A DNA stretch of 64,000 bases. Source: Cyanidioschyzon merolae (lineage: Eukaryota). The DNA lies in assembly GCA_000091205.1 (NCBI GenBank), contig AP006498.2; one strand, written 5' to 3'. The translations under genes were made by a program, and so were the position numbers. Positions 6,811-42,844 of this stretch are shown piece by piece (within the stretch, counting starts at the first letter, position 1; each line of letters begins with the position of its first letter). The notes under the pieces are model-generated. The model ran no database searches. It saw only the letters and a program-made list of their open reading frames with translations, and was not told the DNA's origin.

Positions 6811-6850
6811 TTCGCGCCTGCACCAGCGCCTGCACCAGCGCCTGCACCGT
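6811..6850. repeat. Short tandem 12-mer (GCGCCTGCACCA) x ~3.
   Basis: The sequence cctgcaccagcgcctgcaccagcgcctgcacc is visible directly. Confidence 0.7.
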
Positions 6851-7136: not shown

Positions 7137-10100
7137 ATGCGCTCCGATCCGAAACGTCGAGCACAGTGTCTGTGTGGCTTGCAGGGGGTCATGCGCAGGC
7201 CGCCAGCGACTTTTGTGGTGCCAAGTAGGGCGATCAGGAACACCGGAGAAAACGTAGAATATAGAAACAGCTTGAGCGTGGAAAATCTGGGAAAGCATCT
7301 ATGGAAAGAACGTCGGCAACGAAGGCGCTACGTGCCGCCGCTTCCAGACGCGAATCGGCACTCGAGGCAACGAGTGCCTGTTGCACCGGCACGCTGCCGG
7401 GGGTTGCTCCTGTGTTGTCAAGATTGCAGCGAGTATGAATTGAAGTCGTTCGTCGACAGAGACGAAGACGAGCACGGAACTGGTGGTGGACGCGGCGAGT
7501 CCAGCGGCTCGCGCTCGTCACCGAACTTTATATCGTGGCGACAAGTGGATCGAGCCCAGCTTACCCCGCTGTTTCGCCACTTTCTCTCGGTAAAGGATCG
7601 ATTTCCCGACGCAGTGATCCTTTACCAGTGCGGTGACTTTTTTGAGACATTCTTCGATGACGCGGTGGTTTTACATGAGAAACTTGAGCTTGCCCTTACT
7701 GGAAAGGACGCGGGAAAGGAGGTCGGTCGGGTGCCCATGGCCGGTGTCCCGCTATCCTCTCTGGACCGCTACTGTGCTGCGCTCCTGGAACATGGATATC
7801 ACGTCGCTGTCGTTGAGCAGGTGGAGCCAGCCAACGGGCGTTCTGGTGGTGATGGCGCTCTCGTGCGTCGCGAGGTTACCCGAATGCTGACCCCCGGCAC
7901 CGTTCTCGAGGAAGGCCTTCTGGATGCTCGCTCCAATAACTACCTCGTCGCGTTATGGGGCCAGCGCCTGACATCAGTACGGGGCGACGTGGATCGCCGA
8001 TCGCCCTCCAAATCCAGTAGATGTACAGCGGATGCTACCAATTGGTTGTTTGGCCTCGCATACCTGGACGTATCCACGGGTGATTTCGGATCGACCGCTG
8101 TCGAGAATGATGTGGAGGATCTTCAGGCGGAGCTCGGACGACTGCATCCCGCAGAGGTGCTGCTAACCGATGATATTTCTGAAGAGGTTTCCAGCTGCCT
8201 CGAGGGTGTTCTGGAGCGCACGTTCACCACGAATGGATGGAGAGCGTCGATCACCCGGAGGCCCCGCGCATTTTTTGATCTGGAATGTGCCCGGAAACGA
8301 ATCGAGGAGCGCTTTGGATCCCAGCTGGATAGCGTCTTTGATGAGAGGCAGCTCAAGAGTATCGTCCAAATTCGGGTGATCGGAGCGCTCCTCGCGCTTG
8401 TCAACGAAACCCTGGAGCGCGCCCAAGCACCCATCGCTTTTGCAATGCCCCAAACAGCAGCAAATGCAACACCATTGGAGCCTATTGTTTCGGGAAACCT
8501 GCTCACTCCATTGCAGCCACCAAGGCCCTACCAGATTCAAGGAAGCATGATGCTCGATGGAACAGCACTCCGCAATCTGGAAATCGTGCACCCGGCCCGG
8601 GACAGTCGCAGCCGCCGTGGCACACTGCTCTGGGCGATGGATGCAACGGTCACCGCTATGGGTGCCCGACTCTTGCGTCGCTGGCTCCTGCGACCGAGCC
8701 GGGACCTCGAAACCATCCGGTATCGACAGCAGCAGGTGCAGCGGTGGCAGCGCGACCATCTCCAGCGTGAACGCCTGCGTCGACTCCTGCGCGGTGTTGC
8801 CGATATAGAGCGCCTCGCGGGAAAAGTTGCCACCCGGAGAGCGAATCCCCGGGAACTTTATGCTCTCGCCGCATCTCTCTGCCGGTTGTCGACGCTTCTT
8901 TCCGAGGTTGAGGCGCGAATAGGCGCAGGCACTGGTTCTGCTGAAGCTCCCTGCTGGCCTGCAGCGGCGAGCAGCGCTACCAAGGATCTGATCAAACTCG
9001 CCCATCAAGTCGTATTCGATGCCTTTCTGACGCGGGATAAGGAAGAGGGTTCTCCGAGCGCCTCTGAAAGCGCTGTTGCTGGCAGCACGCTGCGAGGTCG
9101 CGAGCCACGCGGCGTTGCGCTTTCACCACCGCCGCCCTACGGAGTGCCAGTCCGTCTGCCGAGTGCTGCTGAAGATCGACCCATCTTTCGCAGCGGCTTC
9201 CACGCGGAACTGGATCTTTTGCGCGAACAAGCTGCAGGCGATCTCGCCTGGATCACTGCCTATGAAGCGCAGGAACGTGAACGCACCGGAATCGCAAGCT
9301 TGAGGGTCAGCTATCATAATGTCTTCGGATATTATATCCAGATCCCGAGTCGTTTCACGAACCCCTCGAATACATCTCAAAACGGCCGCTCGCAACCGAC
9401 TGCGCTGCCCACAAACTACGTGCGTCGACAGACGCTCAAATCCGTTGAGCGGTACGTCACACCCGAGCTTCGAGAACGGGAGCAACTGATCCTCGGTGCA
9501 CGAGCACGAGTCGCTGCGCTAGAGTGTCGCCTCTTTTACGACCTGCTCGAGCAATTCGGTGCTGCAATCGACACCATACGCAGCATGGCGTCGTGGGTGG
9601 CGGAGCTGGACGTACTGCTGGGTTTCGCTGAAATCGCCCTCGAACGCAACTATACCATGCCGGAGGTCGTGGATTCGTCAGACCCGGTAAGCGGTCGACT
9701 CGTGGACATCGAGGATGGGCGGCATCCGGTGGTCGAGTGCACGCTGCCGCCCAACGAGCGCTTTGTGCCCAACTCGCTGCGTATAGGTGACGGAACCGTT
9801 GATATGGTGCTCCTCATGGGCGCGAATGCCTCAGGCAAGAGCGTTTTCCTCCGCCAGGTCGCTCTGATTCAGATCATGGCCCAGTGTGGCTCGTTCGTGC
9901 CAGCGAAACGTGCTCGACTGGCGCTCACAGACCGCATTTTTACCAGAGTCGGAGCGGCCGATGACATCGCCGCCGCAAAGTCTACCTTTGTGATGGAGAT
10001 GGAGGAAACCGCCACCATTCTGCGCCACGTTACACCAAACTCACTTGTTCTTCTTGACGAGGTCGGACGGGGTACTTCAACCGCGGACGGTCTAGCGATT

Positions 10101-10550
10101 GCGCAGGCCGTGACCGAGTACCTGGTAAGCGAGGCAGTGCGAGCCCGGGGTATTTTCGCCACCCATTTCCATGAGCTGGCACAGCTCGAGCATGCCTTTT
10201 CCAATATAACCTGCTTTCACATGGCCGTGATTGAGCGCTACCCAACTGGAAACGTCGAGCCTGCTATCGTTTTTCTCCATCGCCTTGAACGGGGCGCCGC
10301 GAGTCGCTCCTTCGGGATCGAGGTTGCCCAGCAGTGTGGGCTTGTTGCGGCCATTGTACAACGTGCTCGTGAGCTCGTTCGGGATGACTCGTCAGCGAAC
10401 CACGAGCCGCCAAAGGGCCCGGGGACGGCCACGGAGGCTGCGCAGGCCAGCAACGTGAAAGTGCAGGTTCAGCGGATGCAGCCGAGACGATGGCGACCGC
10501 GAAACAAACCCAGCGATCTTGATGCTGGTTTCTGTGCAGCTCGGGTTTGA
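7137..10550 (+). CDS. Bacterial-type MutS1 DNA mismatch-repair ATPase with an R/S-rich N-terminal extension, probably organelle-targeted. There is no GIY-YIG tail.
   Basis: MutS domain I motif DAVILYQCGDFFETFFDDAVV...GVPLSSLDRYCAALLEHGYHVAVVEQ. The ATPase region LLMGANASGKSVFLRQVALIQIMAQCGSFVPA...RIFTRVGAADDIAAAKSTFVMEMEETATIL...LVLLDEVGRGTSTADGLAIAQAV...FATHFHEL is near-collinear with E. coli MutS. The first roughly 140 aa are basic and low-complexity, so the start codon is uncertain. Confidence 0.9.
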   Translation: MRSDPKRRAQCLCGLQGVMRRPPATFVVPSRAIRNTGENVEYRNSLSVENLGKHLWKERRQRRRYVPPLPDANRHSRQRVPVAPARCRGLLLCCQDCSEYELKSFVDRDEDEHGTGGGRGESSGSRSSPNFISWRQVDRAQLTPLFRHFLSVKDRFPDAVILYQCGDFFETFFDDAVVLHEKLELALTGKDAGKEVGRVPMAGVPLSSLDRYCAALLEHGYHVAVVEQVEPANGRSGGDGALVRREVTRMLTPGTVLEEGLLDARSNNYLVALWGQRLTSVRGDVDRRSPSKSSRCTADATNWLFGLAYLDVSTGDFGSTAVENDVEDLQAELGRLHPAEVLLTDDISEEVSSCLEGVLERTFTTNGWRASITRRPRAFFDLECARKRIEERFGSQLDSVFDERQLKSIVQIRVIGALLALVNETLERAQAPIAFAMPQTAANATPLEPIVSGNLLTPLQPPRPYQIQGSMMLDGTALRNLEIVHPARDSRSRRGTLLWAMDATVTAMGARLLRRWLLRPSRDLETIRYRQQQVQRWQRDHLQRERLRRLLRGVADIERLAGKVATRRANPRELYALAASLCRLSTLLSEVEARIGAGTGSAEAPCWPAAASSATKDLIKLAHQVVFDAFLTRDKEEGSPSASESAVAGSTLRGREPRGVALSPPPPYGVPVRLPSAAEDRPIFRSGFHAELDLLREQAAGDLAWITAYEAQERERTGIASLRVSYHNVFGYYIQIPSRFTNPSNTSQNGRSQPTALPTNYVRRQTLKSVERYVTPELREREQLILGARARVAALECRLFYDLLEQFGAAIDTIRSMASWVAELDVLLGFAEIALERNYTMPEVVDSSDPVSGRLVDIEDGRHPVVECTLPPNERFVPNSLRIGDGTVDMVLLMGANASGKSVFLRQVALIQIMAQCGSFVPAKRARLALTDRIFTRVGAADDIAAAKSTFVMEMEETATILRHVTPNSLVLLDEVGRGTSTADGLAIAQAVTEYLVSEAVRARGIFATHFHELAQLEHAFSNITCFHMAVIERYPTGNVEPAIVFLHRLERGAASRSFGIEVAQQCGLVAAIVQRARELVRDDSSANHEPPKGPGTATEAAQASNVKVQVQRMQPRRWRPRNKPSDLDAGFCAARV

Positions 10551-15759: not shown

Positions 15760-18605
15760 TTACCGCGGTGAGCGCGTTGATGTCGACGCTGCTTCTGAGG
15801 CGGCCCCGTTGGCTCCTTCGCCCGAATGCCTCTGATGCAGGGGATTCCCCACAGACCCGTGTTTCGATGCGGTACGTTCCCGCAGCCCGGTCGCCTTGTG
15901 TTTCCGTCGAGCGCAAGCGCGCCGTGCACGACCAACGGTTTCCACAGCATGCTGCGGGGCGTTGGTCACCATCGCGGCTAGTACGGCACCCGTCTGCGCT
16001 GCTAGCTCGGTAGCGAGTTGCGCTACCTGATCGGCCTCGTGTGGGAACGCCTGGTAGGCTGCAGCCACCACAGAGGGCAACGAGAATCCCGCAGTCAACG
16101 AAGCGATCATGAACGATCGGGCATCGATGGCAGCAGCTTGGACCTGCGGGGTGGACTGCCCCGAGACACCCCCGCTTATCGGTGCATCGCTTCCGTTCCG
16201 AATCGAATATACAGCAGCGGTTCGCTGAAGTCGCGGATCCAACGCACTTGCAAAGGCCACTGCAGCCGTCGACGCGGCACCTGTGGAGCTGTCTCTCGCA
16301 GCGCTGGTTGGTGCTTGGCTTGACGCCGCTGCCGCCGGCGTTGCGGCCCCGTCGCGGGTATCCATGGCATCGCTCGACACAGACCTGGTCGATGACGGCC
16401 TCGGGGGTATCGAGCCTGCCGCTCCGCTCCCGGAACCGGACGCTGTGGCGCTGCTCCTGTGGCGCTGCAGCCACGATTGGACCAGGTCGCTCGAGGACTC
16501 AAAATAGAGACCGCGCTGCTCCGCGTCGCACAAGAGTGCATCCCAGTCGGCGCTGTGCGCTCTGAGAGCGGCCGCATGACCCAGCACCACGAGAGATACT
16601 TTGGCCCGCGTCAAGGCCACATTCAGGCGACGAACATCTCCAACAAAGCCAATACCACTGCGATGTTGCGCGGTACGCACAGCCGAGAATATGATGACGT
16701 CCTTTTCCCGACCCTGGAATGCATCCACAGTATCGATTTCGATGGTGCAGGGCATCTGCTGCCCCGGCAGAATGAGGCCGCTCTGGTCGAGTGCCTGTTG
16801 GAGCAGACGCATCTGCGCTCGATACGGTGTCAAGATGCCAAGATGCCACACCCGATCGGATGCTTTCCAGTAGCGCTCATAGAGGATCTCCACAAGCTGC
16901 ATCGCAAACGCCGCCTCCTTGGGATTACTCAGCGACGCTGTCGTAGCGTCCCGCTCCTCTGTAGCCTCGGCGATATCTACGAAGCAGTACGGGCCCAGAA
17001 GCGGCGGCGGTGGCCCAGTCCGATGAAAAGCTGGCCGATAGAGCTCGCTGCGTACGCAATCGTCATTCTTGAGTTGATTTTGGTAGAACCAGCGTGTCGG
17101 AAACGTCGCAATCGCAGGATGCATACGATACTGGGTGTCAAGCAGGTGACCGGTCCAGCCGGCTTGCAGCAGACGTTCCATGAGCGATCGAGCGAGCGCC
17201 ACGCCTGCATCACCTCGACTGAAGACGGTTGCCGGGAGCTGTTGCGGGTCACCGGCTAGCACACAGCGTTCGCACCCGTACTGCAACGGAATCAGGGTAG
17301 CGAGCTCCGTTGCTTGTGCGGCCTCGTCGATGACGACAATGGGGAACGTGCTCGCGCGTGCTTGGAACGCACCATCCAGCGTGGAAACGCTCTCCCCGGA
17401 GCGCTCCGGTAGCGATCGCGCCTCGCTCGCTAGCGGTGCGTCCCGCAGCCACGACTTTATCAGGGCGGCACCGCTGAGCGTGCAGAGCACAATCTCGGCC
17501 TCTTCGAGGTATGTTCCGGCAATCCAAGCAATGCGCTGCTCGCGGCTGATCCGTTGATCCGGCCAGGTTGCCATGCGATAGCGTCGCTCGTCTCGTTGGA
17601 GGCGATCCAGGCGATCCCAGAGCCGCATCAGGCGACCTCGCGCCTCCAGGTCGTGCTGCGGTGGAGCGGGCGTCTCAAGTTGCCCCAGCAGCGCTCTGCA
17701 TTGTTGTTCCCAGTGTTGAATCCATTCTGCGGAATGTTTCGCACTTTCCAGCGCTTGCAGGAAGGCTTCTGCACGAGCCTCGGCAGTCACTGCTCGGGCT
17801 TTGGGATGAACTCGGGCTCCGGCTCCGATTCGAACGATATCAGGATAATAGGTGCGCAGTTTCCCATCGACGAATCCTTCGCGCATGATACGGACAACGA
17901 TTTCATCCACAGCAGCATTGGATTGTGCGGTGACAAGCAGGCGCGGTTTGCGTTGCAATGCAGCAGTATGACGAGCTGTGCGCAGAGCGCTGAGCTTCAC
18001 TGCTGCGGTTGCTGCAGCAGTGGTATTTCGAACCGAATCCAGTAACTGTTCCAGAATGGGTTTTGGTGTCGAGTCCGTCCCGGCAGTCGGCAACGTCGAT
18101 TGGTCGCATGAGGTCCTGGGACGTTCTTCTTCCTGTGCCGCTGGAGATCCAAGTGCGCTCAAGTACGCGTCATAATATTCCTGGTACTTGCTCATATGCA
18201 ACAAGTTCAGCAAAGAGAGCAAGGTTTTCGTTTTCCCGGTACCAGGCGGGCCATGAATCAACGCGAATCCTCTTTGACGGTGCACGGAGGCCCGCACCGC
18301 CTCGTACTGGGATCGATTGAGACCTCGCTGGTTCGAAATCACCGCGAGATATGCATCCAGTTCGGATCGCTGCGGCCCAGGGGCCAGCTCACGCTGCTGC
18401 TCCGCTGCAGCACCTGCCGGATCCAGTATCACAGGAGCCAGCTCCATCTCTGCGATACTGGAGAGCGCACCAAGCTCGCGTGCGTGGTTCAGCGTGCTCA
18501 TGAGACGTATTGCTGGCGTCGGCGGGGTACATGCGGCGTTTTCGGATCCTATGGCGCTGTTCAAGGGACCTGATGAGCAATCTGTGCGAGCTGTTTCCCA
18601 TTGAC

Positions 18606-18639
<34 letters not shown>

Positions 18640-19512
18640 AAGCCAGGCTTCGGCACGTGCACGTTGCATGCGTAGCATCAGCGGTGAGCCCGCCCGGTGC
18701 TGGACAATGCCCAGAAGAGGTTGTTGCCGAATCTCGCGTAGCTGAGCGCCCGTAAGGCGCTGGTCCTCACGCGTACACGGAAGCAACAGCAGAATATCAT
18801 GATCAAAAATGGTTTCTTTGCTCTGAATCTTAATGGGAACTTCCACTAGTGCACTTGATCCCGGTTCGTCGTGAGTTGAAACCGGCTCTGCTGATACCTT
18901 GGTGGCGCCTCGTGGCTCCACTGGAACTGGATCGCCTCGAGTGCTTACCAGCACCACGAGGCCAGACTTTTCTGGCGTCAGCGCTGCGGAGAGTGTCCGC
19001 AGAACACTATCAAACGCGTTGTAGAGCTCACTACATACCTCTATGTCGACGAGCTGCGTGAAGAAGGCGATGTACTCGTCGGGGTTCCGGAACGGAAGGT
19101 TCTCCGCCTCCGAGGACCTTTTGCAGGCACCAGCAACTGCGTTAACTGAAGTTAGAGAGTTTGGCCAATTTTTCGGTTCACTGGACAGAATCCGGTCCAA
19201 AGCCGCTCGCATACCGACATTGACGTTTGCAAACGGTGCACCGGTGGTACTGATAAACGCTGTAGGGAGTGTGTTTTGTTCGCGTAAACGATACCAGAAG
19301 AGTGATACAGTGTTGGCCACTGTGTCTGCGGTGTGGCCCGATGCGTTGGAGGGCGTGCGCGCGGGCGTGGCAGCTACAGGACTGTCGCCGAGCGGCATCT
19401 TGCATCTATATGCTTCACCGCGAGCGGCTCTCAAGCGTTCAGTTGGGAATTCCTGGTCCAGTGTGAACGTTCCTTCGAACCAGAAAAATGGTAAGGAAAC
19501 ATTCTCGGTCAT
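15760..19512 (-). CDS. Superfamily-1B Upf1-like helicase (Sen1/senataxin/MAA3-like) with a long low-complexity N-terminal region.
   Basis: Walker A FALIHGPPGTGKTKTL. VVIDEAAQATELATLIPLQYGCERCVLAGDPQQLPATV. TQYRMHPAIATF. TVDAFQGREKDVIIFSAVRT. RRLNVALTRAKVSLVVLG. These are the AAA_11/AAA_12 helicase motifs. Confidence 0.85.
18606..18638. repeat. (GCT)n trinucleotide run of about 10 units inside the helicase CDS, encoding a poly-Q tract on the gene strand.
   Basis: gctgctgctgctgctgctgctgctgctgct is visible directly. A similar CAG/CAA run lies at about 14375-14410 in COPG. Confidence 0.8.
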
Positions 19513-22578: not shown

Positions 22579-24891
22579 ATGAGGGCAGACACGGTCGCAT
22601 TCCTCGTTTGGAGCGGACTTGGTCCAAACTCGAGGCAGCCGCGTGCGTCGTCGTCGAGGTCACTGCTACGTCTGCAAGCAGGTGCCGCTAGCCACGAAAA
22701 CGAGCCGCCTGTTGGTAGTCGCGAGCAGAAGCAGTCGGCTTCTTTGAAGTACGAGGCTGCAAAAGAGTTACCAGCGGGCGCGAATGAAAACGCGTCCCCG
22801 CCCGCGAACCATAAAATCACGCCGACGAACGGGGTATCGCCGAGAATCTCTCTACAAGAGCTCACGGGGCGTACTGGTAGGCTACTGCGATCCCAACGTA
22901 ACGGGAGCGCCGGCGGAGCACCAGCGGCTTGCTGGGACCAGGGCGCCGCCAAGGTGCCGAGTGCACCAGCAGCAGCGGCGTGGCTCGCAAAGCGTCGCGC
23001 CATCTTACAGGAACCTGTCTCGGTTTCCGCGCTGGTCGAAGATGTCATCCCGGGGGGAGTCAGGCACAACGGCACGAATCAGGTCCGAAACCATGCTATG
23101 GACGAGAACGCGGCCTCTCGAGCCAACTGCAGCCAGCATGAAGCCCCGACCGCTGCCGCAGCGTATCGCGAGTCGCTTAGCGGGAGTGTCGTTGTCCAGA
23201 ACTCACCGTTCCGCGAAGTAGTGGTCATCTTTGGAAAGCGTCTCGTGCGTGACCAGATAACCTACGAATACGCTGTGCGTATTCTAACGCTCGTCCGGCA
23301 CATGGTTACAGGACGTATCAAACCTTCAGCAGTATGCTTTACCGGCGGCCGGGATCATCCCGATAGTTTGGTCAGCGAAGCCGTTGCCGGATACCTGTTC
23401 TTTCGCCATGTGTGCGAAGAATTTAGCATCAGCCTCGATTCAGTAGCGATTATCCTAGAGGAACAGCATCTGAACGCGCGAGATTGCATGTCGTCGATAC
23501 TTACCCAACTCGGGGAGCAACTCGTAGGCTCCCATTTTACCTTTGTGAGCAGCGACTACCACTTGATACGTATTCGAGAGGTAGAGGCGGCAGCTCCGAA
23601 CTTGTCGCTTTTGGCACCACTGCGCAAACTGCGCGGCACCGTGTCGTATGCATACACGACGTACCCGTTCGCGCTCTCGAAGAACGCAGCAGTAGCACTT
23701 GCTGGTCGGGCAATCGTCATCGCCGCTGAGCTGGGTATCATGATCGTGGCACTGCGCTCGTACATCGAGGAACGCGGCCTCTTCCAACGCGATGTATTCC
23801 GCCGCTTCCAGGAGGCCACCATCGAACTGGGAAATCTGTGCGAGAAATGCAGTGCAGCCCTGCAGGTACAGATCCCAACAGCGTCATCGACGACGGATGA
23901 TATTGTATTCACTCAAGATATCCGCCTGGTAGGAGAGGTGATCGAAAGTGCTTACTTTGAATTGCGCCAGGTTATCCGTGTGCTGGAGCAGTGGGTTTTG
24001 GAGAAAAGTCCGCTAAGCCGCATGGAGCTACAGAATATTTTGCAACAGATCACAATAGTTGAGCAGAGAATTAGGAGCTCCCTCGATCCAGACCGGCCGC
24101 TAACGGCAATGGAATGGAATCACCTGCCTCTGGTGTTCCTAGCACCAGTCCTTGGACCAGGATTCGAGCAACACAGTTTATCAGGGGATCCTGGAACGCA
24201 ACCTTGGATTCCTACATCACCAGCAGGAGCAACCCCAGCACCAACGACGGCGACGGTGACAAGCTCAGTGCATGGATCCACCATTGCACCCGCAACGGCA
24301 GCGTACGCGACATCACGAACCGAATCGGCGCTCTCGTCTGCACCAGCCGCCAATCGAAACGCAACGACAACGGACTCGTCATGGGAATCCTCGTCGTTCG
24401 TATCGCCTTCGTCGTCGATGACGACGTCCGCGGCGGTGGCAGCGGAACATGCAGCAGCAGCAGCAGCGTGGCATCTTCGGAAACCGTCCGCGTCGCCCCT
24501 GAACGGTGCTGGTGCTCGACTGCGCCACTTTGCGTCGATCGTCGCTGAAGCTTCGCAAGCCATCTTTCACGAAGTGCTTCGACCTGAAAACCACGAGGAA
24601 AAGGCACGACGTATTTCCGAGGAAAATCGACGACGGCGACGACAGGCTGCCGCTGAGTCGGGTCCCGGTCTGTCACCCGCGAAACTGCGTGCGCACCGCG
24701 AGTCCCACGCTGCATCCGGCACTGCGAATAGACGAAGTGCTCGTACGACTGCTGCATCAAGGCCTGCGAACGGGCACGTACCCAACGGAACCAGCGCATA
24801 CCATGAGCCTAAGCCGCCTGCTTCCGGTCGGGAAACGGACGCAGACACAACAACGTCGGACCGTTTCACGGACAAGCGCACGGCAACCTAG
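22579..24891 (+). CDS. DUF218 (YdcF-like) domain protein with long Ser/Ala/Thr-rich low-complexity flanks.
   Basis: Core VVVIFGKRLVRDQITYEYAVRILTLV...AVCFTGGRDHPDSLVSEAVAGYLFF...AIILEEQHLNARDCMSSIL...FTFVSSDYHLIRI fits the DUF218 pattern (GG...SEA..m...E..S.nT..N...VTs.yH). Confidence 0.5.
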   Translation: MRADTVAFLVWSGLGPNSRQPRASSSRSLLRLQAGAASHENEPPVGSREQKQSASLKYEAAKELPAGANENASPPANHKITPTNGVSPRISLQELTGRTGRLLRSQRNGSAGGAPAACWDQGAAKVPSAPAAAAWLAKRRAILQEPVSVSALVEDVIPGGVRHNGTNQVRNHAMDENAASRANCSQHEAPTAAAAYRESLSGSVVVQNSPFREVVVIFGKRLVRDQITYEYAVRILTLVRHMVTGRIKPSAVCFTGGRDHPDSLVSEAVAGYLFFRHVCEEFSISLDSVAIILEEQHLNARDCMSSILTQLGEQLVGSHFTFVSSDYHLIRIREVEAAAPNLSLLAPLRKLRGTVSYAYTTYPFALSKNAAVALAGRAIVIAAELGIMIVALRSYIEERGLFQRDVFRRFQEATIELGNLCEKCSAALQVQIPTASSTTDDIVFTQDIRLVGEVIESAYFELRQVIRVLEQWVLEKSPLSRMELQNILQQITIVEQRIRSSLDPDRPLTAMEWNHLPLVFLAPVLGPGFEQHSLSGDPGTQPWIPTSPAGATPAPTTATVTSSVHGSTIAPATAAYATSRTESALSSAPAANRNATTTDSSWESSSFVSPSSSMTTSAAVAAEHAAAAAAWHLRKPSASPLNGAGARLRHFASIVAEASQAIFHEVLRPENHEEKARRISEENRRRRRQAAAESGPGLSPAKLRAHRESHAASGTANRRSARTTAASRPANGHVPNGTSAYHEPKPPASGRETDADTTTSDRFTDKRTAT

Positions 24892-26949: not shown

Positions 26950-28943
26950 TTGCACAGGGAAACGTCGAGGAGAAATGAGCATGTGCACGCTCTCCACGAA
27001 AATTACGCCCAATGCCGCTTGAAGGGTGCTCGATACAAGGCTGACTCGCGTATTTACGAACACGGGACGATGAAGCACCTCACGAACCTGGAGAATCGCG
27101 TGATCGTGAAACTCGAACGCTCCATGATACGCTCCATCTTTGCGCTGTACCCGGGCCTGTCTCGCAAAGGGATACGGGCCATCGTCGGTGGCATCACGAT
27201 CGATAGTAGGCATGAGTGGGAGATCGAATTTGTCGAAAAGAAGACATCACGCAGAAGAAAGAATGAAGGTTCTGTAATCCGTGCGGCTATTCAAGAGCAT
27301 CATGCGGTCTTGGGGCTAGTCGACCCAGCAGAAAAGGTATCAGGATCGAAAGAAGATGAAGAAAGATGGGATCACCTCATGCTGCGCTATTTCGTGTTTT
27401 TCGGACCGAGAACTCGAACGCAAGGCCGAAAATGAGCAGGGTGTGGATGCAAATGAAGCGTCGGATACGCGGAAGGCTGAGCTTCTGGAGAAGCGCTTCA
27501 ACGTCGTTCTGTTATGCGAGATCAAGTCACATTTTGTGACAGTCGACTCCAGAGCCCTTGACGGCATCATGCAGGAGATCAGTTCGGGGTTAGGTGTCAG
27601 CACGAACGAGGTTACGGGCGAAAACCGGGAAACTCACTGAAGGAGTATCATCGATTCCAAACTTCTCAAAACGAGCAAGAAAAAGGAATTTACGGGGATG
27701 TTCGAAAGCGATGGGGTATCCATATGTCGACACTATCGGCGCTTGAAGGCAGACCGTCCAGTTCGGCCCTCGGCTTCGTCCTCGGCGAACCATGAAGAAA
27801 ACAAGGAGGCGGATCCTGCGACGCAGGAGGTGGAGGAGAACGACTTTATGGTTGGCGCGGCGAAGCATAAAGATGGGATGGAGGCGGGTCCTTCGCCGCA
27901 GGACATAGAGGATACCGACTTGTCGCTGGCGCAGACCCCGGAAACACAAAGATCATAACCATCGCTGTGTCCACGCGTGCGGAAGATGGTAACGAGGGTA
28001 ACTTATGTCGGAGAGACATGCGTCTGTGGAGGTTCTCGAGAGCAAGAGACTAAAGAGAATCCGGTATAATGAATGCGAGGAAGAACATCGAGATGTGGAA
28101 TGCAGGAATGAAAGAGCACCTGGAAGCTATGAGCCAGGTGACGAGCCGCGGAGCGGACTTGAAATCTTTTCTGAAATCCATGGAGGTTCGCGTTGCTCAT
28201 TGGGAGGCGCTGTGAAAAGAATATACAAAACCCCGGTGGGCTCGTCTGCGTATGAATCTATACAGTGGAAGCAGCGGGCATTCGCGAATTTTTTCAATGA
28301 GTTGAGCGCCTTGAAAGAGGATGAAAGTCAGAGGCTCGTAGTAGCATACGGAGCAGGACGATGGAAGACTCAAAAAGGGACTACGCCAGCTCCAACGACG
28401 AGAATGTATAACGGGTGTGCAAGGAGTTTCGCTACGATACCTGTAGATGGATTCCGAACGTCGTCTACACACCATGAACTGGGCTGTACACTTCAGAGGG
28501 CAGAGGTGGAAAAGTGCCAGCGGAGCCCTGAGGCTATAAAAAAGTACGGACCGCTGACGGAAGAGCAAATGGAAAGGAGGGCGAAACTTCGAGGGCTACT
28601 CGCATGGGTTAGTACAACCAACGGGGCCAAGAAACGCATGGAGTCCGTGAATCGAGCCTCTAATGCCGCCATCAATATCAGACGATGTTCGGTGCTGGAT
28701 ACAGGACCCGCGGGGCTGACGCGATCCAGTTTTGCGGGGCAATCTCTCCGGCTCGAAGTGAACAGGGAGAAACTGATGCCAATAGCAGTGGGCTGGTCGA
28801 AAACGACAGGTATGCGTCTGCGCCTAGTTATTCATGTGCCTTACACATTCGTGGTGTATTTTCGTTCCATTGACCATGTACGATGTAAGTTCGCAGCACG
28901 GTGCCTTGTTCGTGGTGTCGCATTCCTGCATGGATCCGAATGA
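26950..28943 (+). mobile_element. Candidate decayed or intron-containing TnpB/Fanzor-like element. A frame-broken ORF series (26950-27435 frame 1; 27356-27958 frame 2 with a single in-frame TGA at 27638) precedes the 28005-28943 ORF.
   Basis: The block is compositionally AT-shifted relative to its neighbours. Consecutive same-strand ORFs sit in three frames. The C-terminal ORF carries TnpB/Fanzor RuvC-II/ZnF/RuvC-III-like motifs (see the CDS entry). Confidence 0.4.
28005..28943 (+). CDS. TnpB/Fanzor-like protein fragment or derivative (RuvC-II / zinc-finger / RuvC-III region), copy 1. Catalytic residues appear substituted.
   Basis: LVVAYGAGRWKTQKGTTPAPTTRMYNGCARSFATIPVDGFRTSSTHHELGC ... NRASNAAINIRRC. 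This matches the eukaryotic TnpB/Fanzor pattern GxGxF/W...KG..P.P...v..VdEyrTSk.C..C ...RDvNAA.NI. The E becomes G, the D becomes A, and both CxxC pairs are absent. The N-terminus has an NLS-like KRLKRIR. It is paralogous to 40965-41657. Confidence 0.5.
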   Translation: MSERHASVEVLESKRLKRIRYNECEEEHRDVECRNERAPGSYEPGDEPRSGLEIFSEIHGGSRCSLGGAVKRIYKTPVGSSAYESIQWKQRAFANFFNELSALKEDESQRLVVAYGAGRWKTQKGTTPAPTTRMYNGCARSFATIPVDGFRTSSTHHELGCTLQRAEVEKCQRSPEAIKKYGPLTEEQMERRAKLRGLLAWVSTTNGAKKRMESVNRASNAAINIRRCSVLDTGPAGLTRSSFAGQSLRLEVNREKLMPIAVGWSKTTGMRLRLVIHVPYTFVVYFRSIDHVRCKFAARCLVRGVAFLHGSE

Positions 28944-30018: not shown

Positions 30019-31029
30019 TCAAGTCTTCCGTTGCGGTTTTCTTCGCGATAGCGGATTCGGGCCCCGCGACTTGTTTCGTTTGAAAGCTTTCGTAATATTC
30101 GTTTTGGCGTCCATCCAGGGCAGCTTTGTTGTCCTCTTTGGACGTGAAACACGCGCCACGTTGGCCGAGTCCGGGAGCGCACGCGAAGCGTCGGGATTCG
30201 TGCCCAACTCGCCAGTACGCACCTGCAGCTCTGAAGCCGCTGCGGGTTCGTTCACCTTTGCAAGTGACAACCTATAACCAGACGCTGCCGGACTGCTGCT
30301 TTGTTGGAGCGCCCGCTGAGCCTCATGCGCAGCCGCTACCTCGGCCGGTGTCGCCGCGTACACTCGTTGATGTTGCTCGCGCGCCTCCTGAAGACAAGCC
30401 GTTGAGGGCGGCTCTATCTGGACGTGCAAGCCACCACTGAAAACAGCCAATTGGAGCAACATCGTACCAGCCGTCGCCTTCAAGCGCGATCGCAGAGTGC
30501 TATCCAGTGCCGCTACCGCAAAACGGCCTCGGGAGCGTGTCAGTCCCGCCTGCTGCGCAGTCTCGGGGCCACGCTCGACGCAGGCTTGAATGCAGTCCGC
30601 TTCAAAGTGTTCCTGACCAGGATCAAGCTCCTTGTGTTTCGGGTGTCCACATGGGAGGAGCTCCAGCTGACGAGCTAGCCAACTGACCCGTCGCCAGTGA
30701 TCGCCCACGCGTTTTTGCTCAGCAGACGAACGCTGGACCTCTGCGCCTCCACCTGTGGAGTGCGGAACCTTACCCGTCTGATTTTCTCTATCAGCAATCT
30801 TAATTTTCCTTGAAATCGCTCGCATCGTGCACGTAGTTACCAAGGTACGTACCTGGTTCTTCCCGAACACCCTTATAAACAGCGACGGAAGCGCTTTGCT
30901 CGAGCGGCGCTGCACCAGCTCCCCCAGGAACGCGCTGTCGAGGATCACCCGAAAAGGCGGGCGGTACCCAAACCGCGTCGCATAAAACTTGACATGCTTT
31001 TCCTGTCTCTTCTGTCGTTGTAAACGCAT
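30019..31029 (-). CDS. UTP23: rRNA-processing protein UTP23 (PIN-domain small-subunit processome component).
   Basis: N-terminus MRLQRQKRQEKHVKFYATRFGYRPPFRVILDSAFL aligns with human UTP23 MKITRQKHAKKHLGFFRNNFGVREPYQILLDGTF. C-terminal KSRGPNPLSRRKPQRK aligns with KKISGPNPLSCLKKKKK. Confidence 0.85.
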   Translation of the reverse strand: MRLQRQKRQEKHVKFYATRFGYRPPFRVILDSAFLGELVQRRSSKALPSLFIRVFGKNQVRTLVTTCTMRAISRKIKIADRENQTGKVPHSTGGGAEVQRSSAEQKRVGDHWRRVSWLARQLELLPCGHPKHKELDPGQEHFEADCIQACVERGPETAQQAGLTRSRGRFAVAALDSTLRSRLKATAGTMLLQLAVFSGGLHVQIEPPSTACLQEAREQHQRVYAATPAEVAAAHEAQRALQQSSSPAASGYRLSLAKVNEPAAASELQVRTGELGTNPDASRALPDSANVARVSRPKRTTKLPWMDAKTNITKAFKRNKSRGPNPLSRRKPQRKT

Positions 31030-33230: not shown

Positions 33231-34325
33231 TTAGAGAGTGTAGCTCACTTGTGCTGAACACTGTGGCAAATTCCTTTCAAAGACAAACAGCGATCGCTTT
33301 GCGCAGGCCACCTGGTACCCGTGGCCTATTCCGCGGAAACGGGGAGCCAGCGTCACCACCCGGCGCTTCCGCGCCTCAAGTAGTTTCCTACCGATGGCAT
33401 TGTAGATTGTGAGTGTGATCGCTGCGAGCGGTGCGAGGTACATGACTCGCGGAACGGAGCCTTTCATGAGCGTTGCCGGACCCTCCTCTGCAATGATGCG
33501 GCGGAAAGTTGGCAGAATGCCGCGATACGTGCCGTCAGCGCCTTGGGTCATCAGACGGGTCTTCACGACATCTACGGGTGTGAGCATTAAGGCCGCAGTT
33601 GCACCTCCTATTGCGGCTAGGACGAGGTTTTCTTGTCGGTTCGGAGCGCGTTTCTGAATCCGTTCGAAAAGGCGCGACTCTTGGAGGAAAAATAGAAAGG
33701 AAAGCGCGTTCCAAGGAACATCACGAGAAACCGTTGCCCAGTAACCACGATATAGGCCACCGAATCCTTCTTTCTGGAGAATGGTGGGCAGCGCGACCCC
33801 GATGTGAGGATATAGATCCGCCTGGATGCGCTGTTTGAGCACTTCTTGCGGCACTCGAATAAAGGATGCTGCGAAAGCGCCGGCAGCTCCGGAGACCAAA
33901 TCCACCACAACCTGTCGCCAGGCATGATTGCGACCAGAAGACGTAACTTTTGTTGACGCTTGTTTGGTATGCGAAGCTGGCGGCAGTAGCAGCTCGGTGA
34001 GGCGTTGTTTGCACCACTCGTACGCAACGAACTGCACGCCGCCCGCTGGCACCGCGAGAACAACCTGCGGTATCACGCCTTTGATAAACACCCGCGGTGA
34101 CCAGTCTCGACGAACACCCCGGGCCTGAAGTCGGGTACGCACCACATCTATTGGGTGCAGCAGGGTCTGCGCAACACCACGAGCCGAGGACCCTGCCAGC
34201 AACTTCTCCGTAAACGTTAGCTGCGAAAGCGCATCAACGCCAGTGGTCGTAGCAGCTCCGGCGCTGACTGCAATGACAGTTCCAGTTGTCTTCGTAAAGG
34301 CGTTTTTATTCTCTTTTGAACTCAT
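33231..34325 (-). CDS. Mitochondrial carrier family (SLC25) protein.
   Basis: Three-fold repeat bearing carrier signatures HPIDVVRTRLQ and TPVDVVKTRLMTQ, with six predicted TM segments. Confidence 0.85.
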   Translation of the reverse strand: MSSKENKNAFTKTTGTVIAVSAGAATTTGVDALSQLTFTEKLLAGSSARGVAQTLLHPIDVVRTRLQARGVRRDWSPRVFIKGVIPQVVLAVPAGGVQFVAYEWCKQRLTELLLPPASHTKQASTKVTSSGRNHAWRQVVVDLVSGAAGAFAASFIRVPQEVLKQRIQADLYPHIGVALPTILQKEGFGGLYRGYWATVSRDVPWNALSFLFFLQESRLFERIQKRAPNRQENLVLAAIGGATAALMLTPVDVVKTRLMTQGADGTYRGILPTFRRIIAEEGPATLMKGSVPRVMYLAPLAAITLTIYNAIGRKLLEARKRRVVTLAPRFRGIGHGYQVACAKRSLFVFERNLPQCSAQVSYTL

Positions 34326-34649: not shown

Positions 34650-35740
34650 ACCGGCAGCTCCGGATGGAGAATTTCTGATGAAAAGAAACGAAAAGTCGAT
34701 TATGTAGAATACAGAGGCTCCAAACCAGGGATTCCTCCCTCGTACAATCGTTTTGTTGGTTGAATAGAGCTCGGCAGCTCCGGATGGAGAATTTCTGATG
34801 AAAAGAAACGAAAAGTCGATTACGTAGAATACAGAGGCTCCAAACCAGGGATTCCTCGTCATGCAAATCGTTTTGTCGGTAGAATAGAGCTCGGCAGCTC
34901 CGAATGGAGAATTCCTGATGAAAAGAAACGAAAAGTCGATTACGTAGAATACAGAGGCTCCAAACCAGGGATTCCTCCTTCGTACAATCGTTTTGTTGGT
35001 TGAAAAGAGCTCGGCAGCTCCGGATGGAGAATTCCTGATGAAAAGAAACGAAAAGTCGATTATGTAGAATACAGAGGCTCCAGACCAGGGATTCCTCCTT
35101 CGTACAACCGTTTTGTTGGTTGAAAAGAGCTCGGCAGCTCCGGATGGAGAATTCCTGATGAAAAGAAACGAAAAGTCGATTACGTAGAATACAGAGGCTC
35201 CAAACCAGGGATTCCTCCTTCGTACAATCGTTTTGTTGGTTGAAAAGAGCTCGGCAGCTCCGGATGGAGAATTCCTGATGAAAAGAAACGAAAAGTCGAT
35301 TATGTAGAATACAGAGGCTCCAGACCAGGGATTCCTCCTTCGTACAATCGTTTTGTTGGTTGAAAAGAGCTCGGCAGCTCCGGATGGAGAATTCCTGATG
35401 AAAAGAAACGAAAAGTCGATTACGTAGAATACAGAGGCTCCAAACCAGGGATTCCTCCTTCGTACAACCGTTTTGTTGGTTGAAAAGAGCTCGGCAGCTC
35501 CGGATGGAGAATTCCTGATGAAAAGAAACGAAAAGTCGATTACGTAGAATACAGAGGCTCCAGACCAGGGATTCCTCCTTCGTACAATCGTTTTGTTGGT
35601 TGAAAAGAGCTCGGCAGCTCCGGATGGAGAATTCCTGATGAAAAGAAACGAAAAGTCGATTACGTAGAATACAGAGGCTCCAGACCAGGGATTCCTCCTT
35701 CGTACAACCGTTTTGTTGGTTGAATAGAGCTCGGCTGGTA
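34650..35740. repeat. Tandem satellite with a 120-bp unit and about 9 copies.
   Basis: The unit gctcggcagctccggatggagaattcctgatgaaaagaaacgaaaagtcgattacgtagaatacagaggctccaaaccagggattcctccttcgtacaatcgttttgttggttgaaaaga recurs with exact 120-bp periodicity (unit starts at 34769, 34889, 35009 ...). Copies differ by a few SNPs. Confidence 0.95.
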
Positions 35741-37408: not shown

Positions 37409-39757
37409 ATGATCTTCAATGTAGAGAATGTCAAGGTTTACTTTCCCTACGACTACGTCTATCCTGAGCAGTACGCGTATATGCGCGAGTTGAAGCGTGC
37501 GCTCGACTCGAATGGGCACTGCATTCTTGAAATGCCGACCGGCACGGGAAAGACGGTGACCCTTTTATCGTTCATCACCTCGTACCAGCTTGCCCACAGA
37601 GAGGTTAGGAAGCTGATCTACTGCACGCGCACTGTTGGAGAACTGGAGAAAGTCCTATCTGAGCTGGAGGTCGTAATCAGGTACCGCGACGCGCAACTTG
37701 AAAAGGCAGGGAAACGCGACCAGGCTGCCGCGGTCTTGGCGGTAGGCCTCACAACTCGACGGAACCTGTGTTTGCAGTCGGCAGTCTCCAAGGCCGAGAG
37801 TCGCGAAGAGGCCGACTCGCTCTGCCGATCACTCACCGCGAGTTGGGTTCGGGAATCTCACTCGGCCGCAATCGCTCGTTTTGAGAAGAACCCCGACCTT
37901 GAAGACCTACCCACCACGCTATGCCAGTTCTACGAGGGCTATCGACGGGAAGGCAACGATGCGATCCTACCTTCGGGGATCTACACGCTCGAGAAGGTAC
38001 TCCAGATCGGTCGAGAGCGGGGCTGGTGCCCCTACTACACGGTTCGACATACCATGAATTTCGCCAATGTGATTGTGTACAATTATCAGTACCTGCTGGA
38101 TCCGAAGATTGCAGGCCTCATTTCGCGAGAACTCTCCCGTGAGTGTATCGTTGTTTTCGACGAGGCACACAATATCGATAATGTCTGCATCGATGCGCTG
38201 AGCGTGAGTCTTCGACTGGACGACCTGCGACGTGCTCAAGCAAACGTTGTAAGCTTGCGCAATCGGATCCAAGAAATTCGAACACATGACGAAAGGCGTC
38301 TCCTTGAGGAATACCGTCGCATCCTACAAGGCATTCGACGGCCCGCGGACGTGGACGCCTTCACAATCGAAGCCTCGCCCGTCATTCCAGAAGATGTTTT
38401 GCAGGAGACCATCCCGGGCAATATCCGACGAGGTGAACACTTTCTCTTGTTTCTGCTTCGATTGATCGATTTCTTCCGACAACGAATGCGATCGACGCAA
38501 GTGACCCAGGATACACCTCGGAATTTCCTCCATGCTCTGATGCCGTCAGTTCAGATCCCTGACTCGAAACCGTTGCGGTTTTGTTCGGATCGGCTTGCGT
38601 CACTGCTGCAAACGCTGGAAATCAGCAATGTTCGCGATTTTGTGTCGCTCCAAAAGCTTGCACACTTTGCAACGCTGCTTGGAACCTATTCGCAGGGCTT
38701 TTCCGTGATCATGGAACCGTACGATGAGCGCGCCCCGAACGTGCCGGATCCTGTCTTGCAATTGAGTTGTCTGGATGCCTCTATCGGGATGCGACCAATT
38801 TTCACCCGTTTCCAGTCGGTGATTCTGACCTCGGGAACGATCTCACCCCTGGATCTCTATGCGCGTATCCTGGGCTTCCGACCTGCGGTCGCACACTCGC
38901 TGAACATATCGCTGCACCGGGCGTCCATTTGTCCGATGGTGATCGCCCGCGGCTCCGACCAGATCGCGATCAGCAGCAAATACGATAGCCGCAGAGATCC
39001 GAGCGTCATTCGCAACTATGGTGCGCTACTGGTCGAGCTGGCCAGCGTCGTACCAGATGGCGTCGTTGGATTTTTCACGAGTTACATTTATCTGGAAAGC
39101 GTCGTGCAGATGTGGCACCAGATGGGAATTATTCAAAAGTTGCTAGAGCACAAGCTCGTCTTCATCGAGACGCCGGACATTTTTGAGAGTTCGGTTGCGC
39201 TGGAGAACTACCGACGAGCTTGTGATAGCGGCCGAGGAGCGATCTTTCTCTGCGTTGCTCGGGGAAAAGTTGCTGAAGGAATCGATTTTGACCGACACTA
39301 TGGGCGCTGCGTCGTCATAATCGGCGTGCCGTTCCAGTACACAGAAAGTCGTGTCCTGCGCGCTCGGCTGGAGTTTCTTCGCGAGCACCTGCAGATACGC
39401 GAGGGTGACTTTTTAACGTTTGACGCGATGCGACAGGCTGCGCAATGCATGGGACGGGTTATCCGTTCTAAAGTGGATTACGGACTCATGATTCTGGCAG
39501 ATCGTCGCTATAATCGGGCGCAGAATCGGAGCAAACTGCCGCTATGGATTCAGAGCCATCTCGATGAGGGCAAAGTGGACCTCAGCACCGACATGGCGTT
39601 GGGTATCATTCAAGAGTTTCTGATCCGAATGGCGCAGCCGCTGGATCGGAAGGAAATGATCGGGACAACGCTGCTTCGTGAGATCGATCTGCAGGCGCCT
39701 GGGGACACCAGTTTTTCGGAGACCGCATCGCCAATAGCGCTCATGGGATCCGCTTGA
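37409..39757 (+). CDS. XPD: TFIIH helicase XPD/ERCC2 (Rad3). The complete gene is a single ORF.
   Basis: MIFNVENVKVYFPYDYVYPEQYAYMRELKRALDSNGHCILEMPTGTGKTVTLLSFI is almost identical to the XPD N-terminus. DEAH box VVFDEAHNIDN. C-terminal HD2 motifs GAIFLCVARGKVAEGIDF...RCVVIIGVPF. Confidence 0.95.
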   Translation: MIFNVENVKVYFPYDYVYPEQYAYMRELKRALDSNGHCILEMPTGTGKTVTLLSFITSYQLAHREVRKLIYCTRTVGELEKVLSELEVVIRYRDAQLEKAGKRDQAAAVLAVGLTTRRNLCLQSAVSKAESREEADSLCRSLTASWVRESHSAAIARFEKNPDLEDLPTTLCQFYEGYRREGNDAILPSGIYTLEKVLQIGRERGWCPYYTVRHTMNFANVIVYNYQYLLDPKIAGLISRELSRECIVVFDEAHNIDNVCIDALSVSLRLDDLRRAQANVVSLRNRIQEIRTHDERRLLEEYRRILQGIRRPADVDAFTIEASPVIPEDVLQETIPGNIRRGEHFLLFLLRLIDFFRQRMRSTQVTQDTPRNFLHALMPSVQIPDSKPLRFCSDRLASLLQTLEISNVRDFVSLQKLAHFATLLGTYSQGFSVIMEPYDERAPNVPDPVLQLSCLDASIGMRPIFTRFQSVILTSGTISPLDLYARILGFRPAVAHSLNISLHRASICPMVIARGSDQIAISSKYDSRRDPSVIRNYGALLVELASVVPDGVVGFFTSYIYLESVVQMWHQMGIIQKLLEHKLVFIETPDIFESSVALENYRRACDSGRGAIFLCVARGKVAEGIDFDRHYGRCVVIIGVPFQYTESRVLRARLEFLREHLQIREGDFLTFDAMRQAAQCMGRVIRSKVDYGLMILADRRYNRAQNRSKLPLWIQSHLDEGKVDLSTDMALGIIQEFLIRMAQPLDRKEMIGTTLLREIDLQAPGDTSFSETASPIALMGSA

Positions 39758-41875: not shown

Positions 41876-42844
41876 TCAGAGGAGACACGGGACCAGCGCT
41901 GGACGTTTCTGAACAAATTCCACGAGCGGATAACGTCGCCTGAGGCATTCCTTGCTGAGCACCGCTGTATGGCCCAGATTGGTGGCCACGAAAAGCATCA
42001 CCATGCCAGGCAGGGCGGCGCATAGCCCCACGCACCCCGAAACGACCAGATAGCCGATCAGAATGCCATAGATCAGTATTTCAGCGAGATAATGGGGGCA
42101 CGTACTCCAGCGAAATAACCCCCGCGTCACAATCGCGTACTTCGGAGAACACGACACAGCGTCGTGTACAGCGTAGTGAGAGCGTGGGCGCTTGTGCGCC
42201 TTGCGAACTCGAGCAAGCTCGTAGTGTGCCCAGAATTGCGCAAAGTTGGCGGCACTGAAACAGATGAGAAGCAACGTGAGCGGTATTGTGCTTTGCTTCC
42301 GCATGTGCAGCGCCGGCAGCAGATCTAGATCACTCAGGCACTGGCCATGATGATGACAGCAGCTCCGACCCCACACCCAGAGTATCGGCAGAGATACGTA
42401 AAAAGATAGCCCGGCGGCAGTAAGGACGAGCGGAAGTTTTTGTTCGGTGAAGCTATGGATAAAATAGCTCTCACCGAGACGTCGCAGGGTGTGCACTTGG
42501 AACAGGGTCGCTACCCAACCATACGCAGTTGCGCAGCTACAGCTGACCTGTTCTCTTCGCGCACTATATCGACAGAGGTTCGCAAGTCGTGTGTGGTAGA
42601 GCAAAGCGCCGTTCCAGATGAAGGCTACCAAGTAAAATGCGCGGAAAGTCTGCGCACGAGAAAGCGTGCCCCAACGCCTTTGCGTTTTCCGTTGGTCCAG
42701 GGTATCGTCTTCGCTGTGCCGTAGGCCGCCATACCGGGTCCACGCGTCAAGTCGCGTACTCCAGATTTTGCCAACTGTCAGCGACAGCGCACACGCCCAA
42801 TACACAAGAAGACTGACACCTACAGCGCTGCAGATCATACGCAA
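41876..42844 (-). CDS. Polyprenol reductase / 3-oxo-5-alpha-steroid 4-dehydrogenase family (SRD5A3/DFG10-like).
   Basis: The C-terminal VTRGLFRWSTCPHYLAEILIYGILIG matches the Steroid_dh signature (G.y..vs.PnY.gE...w.G). Multi-TM. Confidence 0.7.
   Translation of the reverse strand: MRMICSAVGVSLLVYWACALSLTVGKIWSTRLDAWTRYGGLRHSEDDTLDQRKTQRRWGTLSRAQTFRAFYLVAFIWNGALLYHTRLANLCRYSARREQVSCSCATAYGWVATLFQVHTLRRLGESYFIHSFTEQKLPLVLTAAGLSFYVSLPILWVWGRSCCHHHGQCLSDLDLLPALHMRKQSTIPLTLLLICFSAANFAQFWAHYELARVRKAHKRPRSHYAVHDAVSCSPKYAIVTRGLFRWSTCPHYLAEILIYGILIGYLVVSGCVGLCAALPGMVMLFVATNLGHTAVLSKECLRRRYPLVEFVQKRPALVPCLL

Follow-up and report, generated by a model that had tools for sequence, protein, structure and literature searches.

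The cyanobacterial-like MutS proteins of Archaeplastida have been described as 'chloroplastic MSH1' (Hofstatter and Lahr, 2021; PMC7884376) and analysed in depth, under the name 'MutS1', by Sloan et al. (2024; PMC12292046), who report the class in multiple red algae and trace it to plastid endosymbiotic gene transfer. According to both papers, red algae alone among the Archaeplastida also keep a cyanobacterial-like MutL (mutL). Three other groups of proteins invite comparison. Plant MSH1, which carries a C-terminal GIY-YIG endonuclease, is considered by Sloan et al. (PMC12292046) a separate MutS lineage, acquired horizontally and perhaps from a nucleocytovirus, and MSH1 orthologues were not found in Cyanidioschyzon merolae (PMC10487979). 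The DPD1-MutS1 fusions, known from Viridiplantae through the work of Sloan et al., join a DEDDh/RNase_T exonuclease to the same cyanobacterial-like MutS1 core. The mitochondrial MSH1 of fungi and animals is also a nuclear-encoded, organelle-imported bacterial-type MutS1; its source is alphaproteobacterial (PMC7884376; PMC12292046). Here we analyse a stretch of 64,000 nucleotides from contig AP006498.2 of C. merolae (assembly GCA_000091205.1), hereafter the window, which contains a gene for a MutS1 protein at 7137..10550. We conclude that this nuclear gene very probably encodes a cyanobacterium-derived MutS1, which the alga owes to endosymbiotic gene transfer from the ancestor of its plastid. 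The protein is already known, since it is named in the annotation of C. merolae 10D and its class was analysed in 2021 and 2024, and our analysis adds no discovery in that respect.

The gene, the domains of its product and the residues discussed below are as follows.

7137..10550, plus strand: maximal MutS1 open reading frame (ORF), uninterrupted, 1137 residues plus stop, encoding a cyanobacterial-type MutS1
7191..10550, plus strand: coding sequence according to GenBank, starting at the second ATG (M19), 1119 residues (exact-sequence look-up)
7137..7562, plus strand: N-terminal extension, residues 1-142, a putative organelle transit peptide plus linker (composition; predicted local distance difference test, pLDDT; no Pfam domain)
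7563..7913, plus strand: MutS domain I (mismatch recognition), residues 143-259 (Pfam PF01624)
7638..7646, plus strand: Phe-X-Glu mismatch-binding motif F168-F169-E170, aligned to F36-Y37-E38 of Escherichia coli
8040..8420, plus strand: MutS domain II (connector), residues 302-428 (Pfam PF05188)
8565..9629, plus strand: MutS domain III (core/levers), residues 477-831, enclosing domain IV (Pfam PF05192)
9033..9158, plus strand: insertion in domain III, about residues 633-674, predicted disordered (pLDDT below 50 for 633-662)
9195..9506, plus strand: MutS domain IV (clamp), residues 687-790 (Pfam PF05190)
9810..10379, plus strand: MutS domain V (ABC ATPase plus helix-turn-helix), residues 892-1081 (Pfam PF00488)
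9819..9842, plus strand: Walker A motif (P-loop), G895-A-N-A-S-G-K901-S902 (alignments)
10056..10061, plus strand: Walker B motif, D974-E975, corresponding to D693-E694 of E. coli (alignments)
10383..10547, plus strand: C-terminal tail, residues 1083-1137 (55 residues), domain-free and predicted disordered (alignment, motif scan)

C. merolae MutS1 is a member of the red-algal, standalone form of the Archaeplastida class and differs from it in nothing essential: the nuclear gene, the cyanobacterial affinity, domains I to V, the Phe-X-Glu motif, the ATPase, the targeting-like extension and the absence of a fused nuclease all match the red-algal MutS1 of Sloan et al. (2024). The five domains follow one another in the canonical order, each scoring far over its Pfam gathering score (E-values from 1.8e-15 to 4.8e-70), and the cut-offs of both NCBIfam equivalogs for bacterial MutS1 were passed (NF003810, 799.3 bits against a cut-off of 480; TIGR01070, 704.4 against 641.7). 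The MutS2 model stayed below its cut-off (165 against 400 bits). When sequences in the PDB were searched, the best matches were the MutS proteins of E. coli (435 bits) and Thermus aquaticus (403 bits) and the bacterial MutS 5X9W (387 bits); human MSH3, MSH6 and MSH2 scored 267, 215 and 168 bits, respectively. Both the assignment to bacterial-type MutS1 and the greater closeness to E. coli MutS than to MSH2-6, which an initial annotation made from the nucleotide sequence had proposed, were thus upheld. That the protein is instead a diverged MSH2-6 protein of the eukaryotic nucleus has nothing in its favour beyond the MutS domains common to both. Such an identity is refuted by the equivalog scores, by the bit scores in the PDB search (435 for E. 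coli MutS, 168-267 for the human proteins) and by the nearest relatives outside the Cyanidiales clade, which are all bacterial, and cyanobacterial in the first place; we give it a vanishingly small probability.

The residues on which MutS activity depends in bacteria are conserved in the C. merolae protein. T143 was aligned by HMMER with T11 of E. coli MutS, and domain V contains, besides the Walker motifs, the signature S949-T950-F951 and the conserved histidine H1010. In an alignment of 11 Cyanidiales and cyanobacterial proteins, F168, E170, K901, S902, D974, E975, S949-T950-F951 and H1010 were invariant. Judged by its sequence, this MutS1 is intact, with no sign of a decayed or repurposed protein. 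Bacterial MutS (E. coli, PDB 1E3M and 7AI6; cyanobacterial MutS) has the same five domains, F-X-E motif, Walker A and B motifs and helix-turn-helix, and cyanobacterial MutS is about 40% identical to the C. merolae protein over 84% of the length of the latter. The C. merolae protein differs from its bacterial counterparts in being encoded by a nuclear gene, in having a leader of about 85-105 residues and four extra loops, and in lacking a C-terminal motif of the β-clamp-binding type.

The origin of the gene was examined with database matches and with a tree. Orthologues within the Cyanidiales were found in Cyanidiococcus yangmingshanensis (67% identity) and Cyanidium caldarium (53%). Among the best 120 matches, those that bear a name and do not belong to the Cyanidiales were all cyanobacterial MutS proteins (for example from Leptolyngbya, Thermoleptolyngbya, Phormidesmis, Pantanalinema and Synechococcales); they were 37-42% identical to the query along about 84% of its length and scored 590-645 bits. 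When GTDB genomes, one for each species, were scanned with a sequence pattern, the best five hits were likewise cyanobacteria (Pleurocapsa, Oscillatoriaceae, Microcoleus, Dolichospermum and Anabaena), followed by Gemmatimonadota, Desulfuromonadales, Clostridia, Chloroflexota, Acidobacteriota and others, while the non-red representatives in a library clustered at 50% reached 536 bits at most. For the tree, 28 translated loci from the GTDB scan, eight named cyanobacterial proteins and five proteins of the Cyanidiales clade were aligned with MAFFT, and the 804 columns in which gaps did not exceed 10% were used for neighbour-joining on Kimura distances with 200 bootstraps. Cyanidiales plus Cyanobacteria were split from 23 other bacterial lineages, which include Bacillota, Chloroflexota, Acidobacteriota, Bacteroidota and Proteobacteria, in 200 of 200 bootstraps; the Cyanidiales and the sampled cyanobacteria were each monophyletic with the same frequency. 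A single melainabacterial sequence joined Cyanidiales plus Cyanobacteria in only 40 of the 200 bootstraps. Adding the best representatives from the 50% clusters left the grouping of Cyanidiales with Cyanobacteria unchanged, and the distance tree agrees with the published maximum-likelihood trees (PMC7884376; PMC12292046). A protein of 1307 residues, P0244, in which RNase_T (a DEDDh exonuclease) precedes MutS domains I to V, adjoins the Cyanidiales clade in the distance tree, a placement consistent with a single plastid-derived origin of the Archaeplastida MutS1. Of the two sources named in the initial annotation, an endosymbiont and horizontal acquisition, the first is borne out, and the affinity is specifically cyanobacterial in the named top matches, in the GTDB scan and in the 200/200 split. 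These results support a narrower statement, that the gene is of cyanobacterial origin and came via plastid endosymbiotic gene transfer.

The same data bear on the alternative that the gene was recently acquired by horizontal transfer, as has been proposed for many genes of Cyanidiales, from a bacterium outside the Cyanobacteria, or that it is a bacterial contaminant in the assembly. Horizontal gene transfer is a known feature of the Cyanidiales, the sampled cyanobacteria do not enclose the red-algal clade, and the separate MutS1 of Galdieria, which is alphaproteobacterial-like, is considered a transfer candidate by Sloan et al. (PMC12292046). Against a transfer of this kind stand the undivided bootstrap support for Cyanidiales plus Cyanobacteria in the presence of Bacillota, Chloroflexota, Acidobacteriota, Bacteroidota, Proteobacteria and other lineages, the occurrence of orthologues in Cyanidioschyzon, Cyanidiococcus, Cyanidium and one further sequence of the same clade, and the grouping beside the Cyanidiales of P0244, an exonuclease-MutS1 fusion with the DPD1-type architecture of Viridiplantae. 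The leader is of eukaryotic type, and the gene lies on one contig among eukaryotic genes. Pfam identified exocyst Sec6, a VTT-domain protein, coatomer gamma, an Upf1-like helicase and a mitochondrial carrier in the window, and also XPD/Rad3, a Myb protein, PDX1 and the PP5 phosphatase. The window has the appearance of typical eukaryotic nuclear DNA, with no obvious introns and an even guanine-plus-cytosine (GC) content of 0.51-0.61. That the gene is nuclear-encoded, as first annotated, follows from these neighbours, among which Sec6, coatomer gamma, the Upf1-like helicase, XPD, the mitochondrial carrier and PP5 are eukaryotic housekeeping genes; together with the even GC content they exclude bacterial contamination of the assembly. 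We regard an origin by transfer or contamination as highly improbable.

Among the other sequences compared, P0179 (ENA/NCBI), a bacterial-type MutS1 of 1269 residues, has its domain V interrupted by an intein with a LAGLIDADG homing endonuclease (Intein_splicing plus LAGLIDADG_3) and groups with Chloroflexota sequences in the distance tree.

The N-terminal extension precedes the conserved TPLFRHF at the start of domain I. Arginine makes up 16% of residues 1-142, as compared with 10% of the remainder, and the net charge of this region is +11; serine makes up 9.2%, as compared with 6.5%. Residues 19-78 contain 20% arginine and 8% acidic residues, and residues 109-142 are acidic and rich in glycine and serine, not basic. 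The earlier description of the first 140 or so residues as Arg/Ser-rich therefore holds for arginine, is weak for serine and does not extend to residues 109-142. The only methionine codons before residue 201 are those of M1 and M19, and F168 and E170 lie upstream of M201. Since only M1 and M19 precede the Phe-X-Glu motif, a product with a working mismatch-binding domain must include the extension. An untranslated extension, the case that the initial annotation had raised against its own proposal, is thereby set aside: barring a non-AUG start or an unannotated intron, the extension is translated, from M1 or from M19. Cyanobacterial MutS proteins have about 30-35 residues before the same point, which align weakly with part of the 140 or so found here, so that the eukaryote-specific extension comes to about 85-105 residues.

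Several properties of the extension would suit a targeting peptide. No Pfam match was found in the N-terminal 142 residues at E<=1, and in an AlphaFold model the extension had a pLDDT of about 24 and was without predicted secondary structure. The model was built from the 11-sequence alignment and is mediocre (mean pLDDT 55.7), and we used it for the disorder of the leader, the loops and the tail. The orthologues are all extended, by 67-130 residues, and no alignment is seen among their extensions, which is what transit peptides would be expected to show. The M19 form opens with MRRPPATFVVPS and thus has a Phe close to its N-terminus; glaucophytes, and by inference red algae, require for plastid import a Phe near the N-terminus of the transit peptide (PMC2222254). 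An early Phe is also found in P0003, in the Cyanidium protein and in P0005. The N-terminal Phe of the M19 form would fit a plastid transit peptide of the red-algal and glaucophyte type, which is suggestive only. We infer that the extension may serve as a transit peptide for the plastid stroma, and the plastid is most likely the compartment to which the C. merolae protein would be directed.

Import into mitochondria, or into both organelles, with repair of mitochondrial DNA instead of or besides plastid DNA, has to be weighed against this assignment. The leader is rich in arginine, has a net positive charge and has few acidic residues in its first 60 positions, and these traits are typical of mitochondrial presequences too. 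Across the Archaeplastida MutS1 proteins TargetP gave mixed mitochondrial and plastid predictions (Sloan et al., PMC12292046), and the POP polymerase of C. merolae is dual-targeted (PMC10877234). The cyanobacterial origin of the protein, its annotation in GenBank as a chloroplast precursor and the Phe near the N-terminus of the M19 form, a feature of plastid transit peptides in red algae and glaucophytes, argue the other way, and we think a mitochondrial or dual destination unlikely.

C. merolae MutS1 resembles plant MSH1 in being a nuclear-encoded MutS homologue with a mismatch-recognition domain that is directed, here putatively, to an organelle; it differs in having no GIY-YIG endonuclease. 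No Pfam hit other than MutS I to V was obtained in the whole protein at E<=0.01, and no Pfam hit at E<=1 came from the C-terminal 66 residues or from the small ORFs that separate the stop codon from the coatomer gene, which agrees with the absence of GIY-YIG stated in the initial annotation. Pfam likewise found no RNase_T/DPD1 (DEDDh exonuclease) domain and no Mrr-like domain of the Cyanophora type in the C. merolae protein. It shares its core with the DPD1-MutS1 fusions of Viridiplantae, but its N-terminal extension holds no exonuclease. From the fungal and animal mitochondrial MSH1, which it resembles as a nuclear-encoded bacterial-type MutS1 with probable import into an organelle, it is set apart by its cyanobacterial, rather than alphaproteobacterial, source.

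The C-terminus was compared with that of the cyanobacterial proteins. Of the 115 non-Cyanidiales hits among the best 120, the named ones all cyanobacterial, 98 carry the motif Q[LM]x[LIM]F within their final 40 residues, most often as QLDIF (59 times) or QLNIF (15 times). None of six proteins of the Cyanidiales clade has it, and the conserved cyanobacterial tail 'IEKHSKIAVGLRK' is not found in C. merolae MutS1. In an alignment with PDB sequences the position of the cyanobacterial motif is equivalent to that of QMSLL (residues 812-816) in E. coli MutS. We take Q[LM]x[LIM]F to be a β-clamp-binding motif, from its likeness to the consensus QL[SD]LF, and QMSLL to be the clamp-binding site of the E. 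coli protein. A C-terminal pentapeptide that binds the β-clamp is common in bacterial MutS but not universal, and is an accessory rather than a defining feature of the family. The proteins of Cyanidioschyzon and those like that of Cyanidiococcus end instead in a common basic tail, RRWRP(R/K)N...D.G...V, which is found in no other aligned orthologues. Extra loops specific to the Cyanidiales proteins lie at about residues 280-300, 430-463, 633-674 and 741-755, the first three predicted disordered; the insertion in domain III, at 633-674, is common to C. merolae, Cyanidiococcus, P0003 and Cyanidium and is found neither in P0005 nor in cyanobacterial MutS.

Lacking the cyanobacterial motif of the β-clamp type, the C. 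merolae protein probably departs from its bacterial ancestor in how it is coupled to the replisome and in how strands are discriminated. The organelles of C. merolae use polymerases of the PolI type, POP and rgPolA (PMC10877234). Taken together, the motif loss, the new loops and the PolI-type organelle polymerases suggest that the plastid MutS1 may no longer be tethered to a β-clamp. As a broader and tentative proposal, which we hold to be possible and no better than that, red algae may have a complete plastid MutS-MutL pathway that is uncoupled from the β-clamp, the Cyanidiales MutS1 having lost the clamp peptide and gained lineage-specific disordered loops and a new basic tail. If this is true, strand discrimination and activation of the MutL endonuclease in the plastid would proceed via a mechanism not yet described. 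In the available text of Sloan et al. (PMC12292046) the word "clamp" is used for the clamp domain of MutS/MSH or for MSH sliding clamps, not for the replisome β-clamp. We found there no mention of the loss of the clamp motif or of the Cyanidiales-specific disordered insertions, which would be a minor addition to that work.

To judge by its conserved residues, the C. merolae protein might act as follows. The leader, as a transit peptide, would deliver MutS1 into the plastid stroma, where a homodimer would scan plastid DNA and bind mismatches or small loops through F168 and E170. Exchange of ADP for ATP would turn the dimer into a sliding clamp, which would recruit the cyanobacterial-type MutL that red algae retain according to the literature; the MutL endonuclease would nick the error-bearing strand, and excision and resynthesis would follow. 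Rejection of heteroduplexes during plastid recombination, as an alternative or additional role, would be equally plausible as an activity of such a protein.

Taken further, this last role might be the principal one, MutS1 policing recombination between plastid genome copies or repeats rather than correcting mismatches after replication; a role of this kind has been proposed for other organellar MutS proteins. The motif of the β-clamp type links bacterial MutS to the replisome, and its presence in 98 of 115 cyanobacterial homologues but in none of the six Cyanidiales-clade proteins would fit such a shift. Control of recombination is also raised as a possibility for the plant MutS1 by Sloan et al. 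(PMC12292046). Domain I and the Phe-X-Glu motif are, on the other hand, strictly conserved, and the cyanobacterial-type MutL reported to be kept specifically in red algae (PMC12292046; PMC7884376) fits a full MutS-MutL pathway. One role does not preclude the other. That recombination is the main one seems to us doubtful, if far from negligible.

Several observations count against a cyanobacterium-derived, plastid-acting MutS1 or leave it less firmly grounded. The clade of the Cyanidiales is sister to the sampled cyanobacteria and does not fall inside them, and the tree, which was built from distances, includes neither eukaryotic MSH outgroups nor Gloeomargarita, the search pattern having biased the choice of taxa. 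As an argument the N-terminal Phe is weak, and it is absent from the long gene model of Cyanidiococcus. The dN/dS ratio (non-synonymous to synonymous substitution rates) of MutS1 relative to a 99%-identical strain was 0.41, a value obtained from just 22 substitutions that says little on constraint. A search of the literature on MutS and MutL of C. merolae found no functional or localisation study of the protein, and according to Sloan et al. (2024; PMC12292046) there is as yet no study on these MutS1 proteins, whose function is uncharacterised. A literature search by the protein accession numbers found no paper, and Moriyama and Sato (2014) mention neither MutS nor a clamp. We nevertheless keep to the reading of the gene as one of plastid ancestry, at the strength given at the outset.

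The control of mutation rate in organelle genomes is an open question, on which the survival of a bacterial-type MutS-MutL pair in red-algal plastids bears. C. merolae is haploid and genetically tractable, and would be a practical system for questions of MutS1 localisation, of plastid mutation and recombination and of strand discrimination. Sloan et al. (PMC12292046) suggested that the native function of MutS1 could most readily be studied in the moss Physcomitrium.

With regard to the start codon, the 1119-residue product that begins at M19 is identical to BAM81713.1 / XP_005537749.1 / UniRef100_M1VJZ3 of C. merolae 10D, as found by exact look-up, and GenBank names BAM81713.1 "DNA mismatch repair protein MutS, chloroplast precursor" and places it on a contig of 908,485 bp. 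The 1137-residue product of the maximal ORF had no exact match in a collection of 15 billion proteins, so that the annotated start is M19. The longer form, with its start at 7137, was seen only in prokaryote-style gene calls, in metagenomes and Logan assemblies. The discrepancy concerns positions 7137-7190, GenBank using the ATG at 7191 and the metagenome and Logan gene calls that at 7137. The Cyanidiococcus orthologue also has two deposited gene models, of 1025 and 1112 residues. An in-frame stop precedes M1 by 36 codons, and the 22 substitutions that separate the gene from its 99%-identical counterpart are too few to settle the coding status of codons 1-18.

At 6814-6848, some 300 bp before the start codon of MutS, the 12-bp repeat GCGCCTGCACCA is present in 2.9 copies; in the 99%-identical strain (Logan run SRR29605751, L001) this repeat is one unit shorter. 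ORFs on the minus strand that overlap MutS1, such as that at 8163-9008 (281 residues), were taken as by-products of high GC in a conserved coding region.

In the remainder of the window no tRNAs were found, and there was no MutL gene among the genes of the window. Three of the neighbours identified with Pfam are located as follows.

15760-19512, minus strand: Upf1-like helicase of superfamily 1 (AAA_11/AAA_12)
33231-34325, minus strand: mitochondrial-carrier gene
37409-39757, plus strand: XPD/Rad3-type helicase (DEAD_2, HBB, Helicase_C_2)

The XPD/Rad3 and Upf1-like helicase genes are nuclear genes of an ordinary kind and have no connection with MutS1. Between the mitochondrial-carrier gene and the XPD helicase gene, at 34652-35735, lies a tandem array of nine 120-bp units with 96% identity; the genome of C. 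merolae is compact, and such an array is unusual there. Seven ORFs of the window, of 312-776 residues, had no Pfam match at E<=1e-5.

22579-24891: ORF with no Pfam match
28005-28943: ORF with no Pfam match
30019-31029: ORF with no Pfam match
41876-42844: ORF with no Pfam match
52399-54729: ORF with no Pfam match
55749-57149: ORF with no Pfam match
60799-61890: ORF with no Pfam match

These seven may encode lineage-specific proteins of C. merolae.

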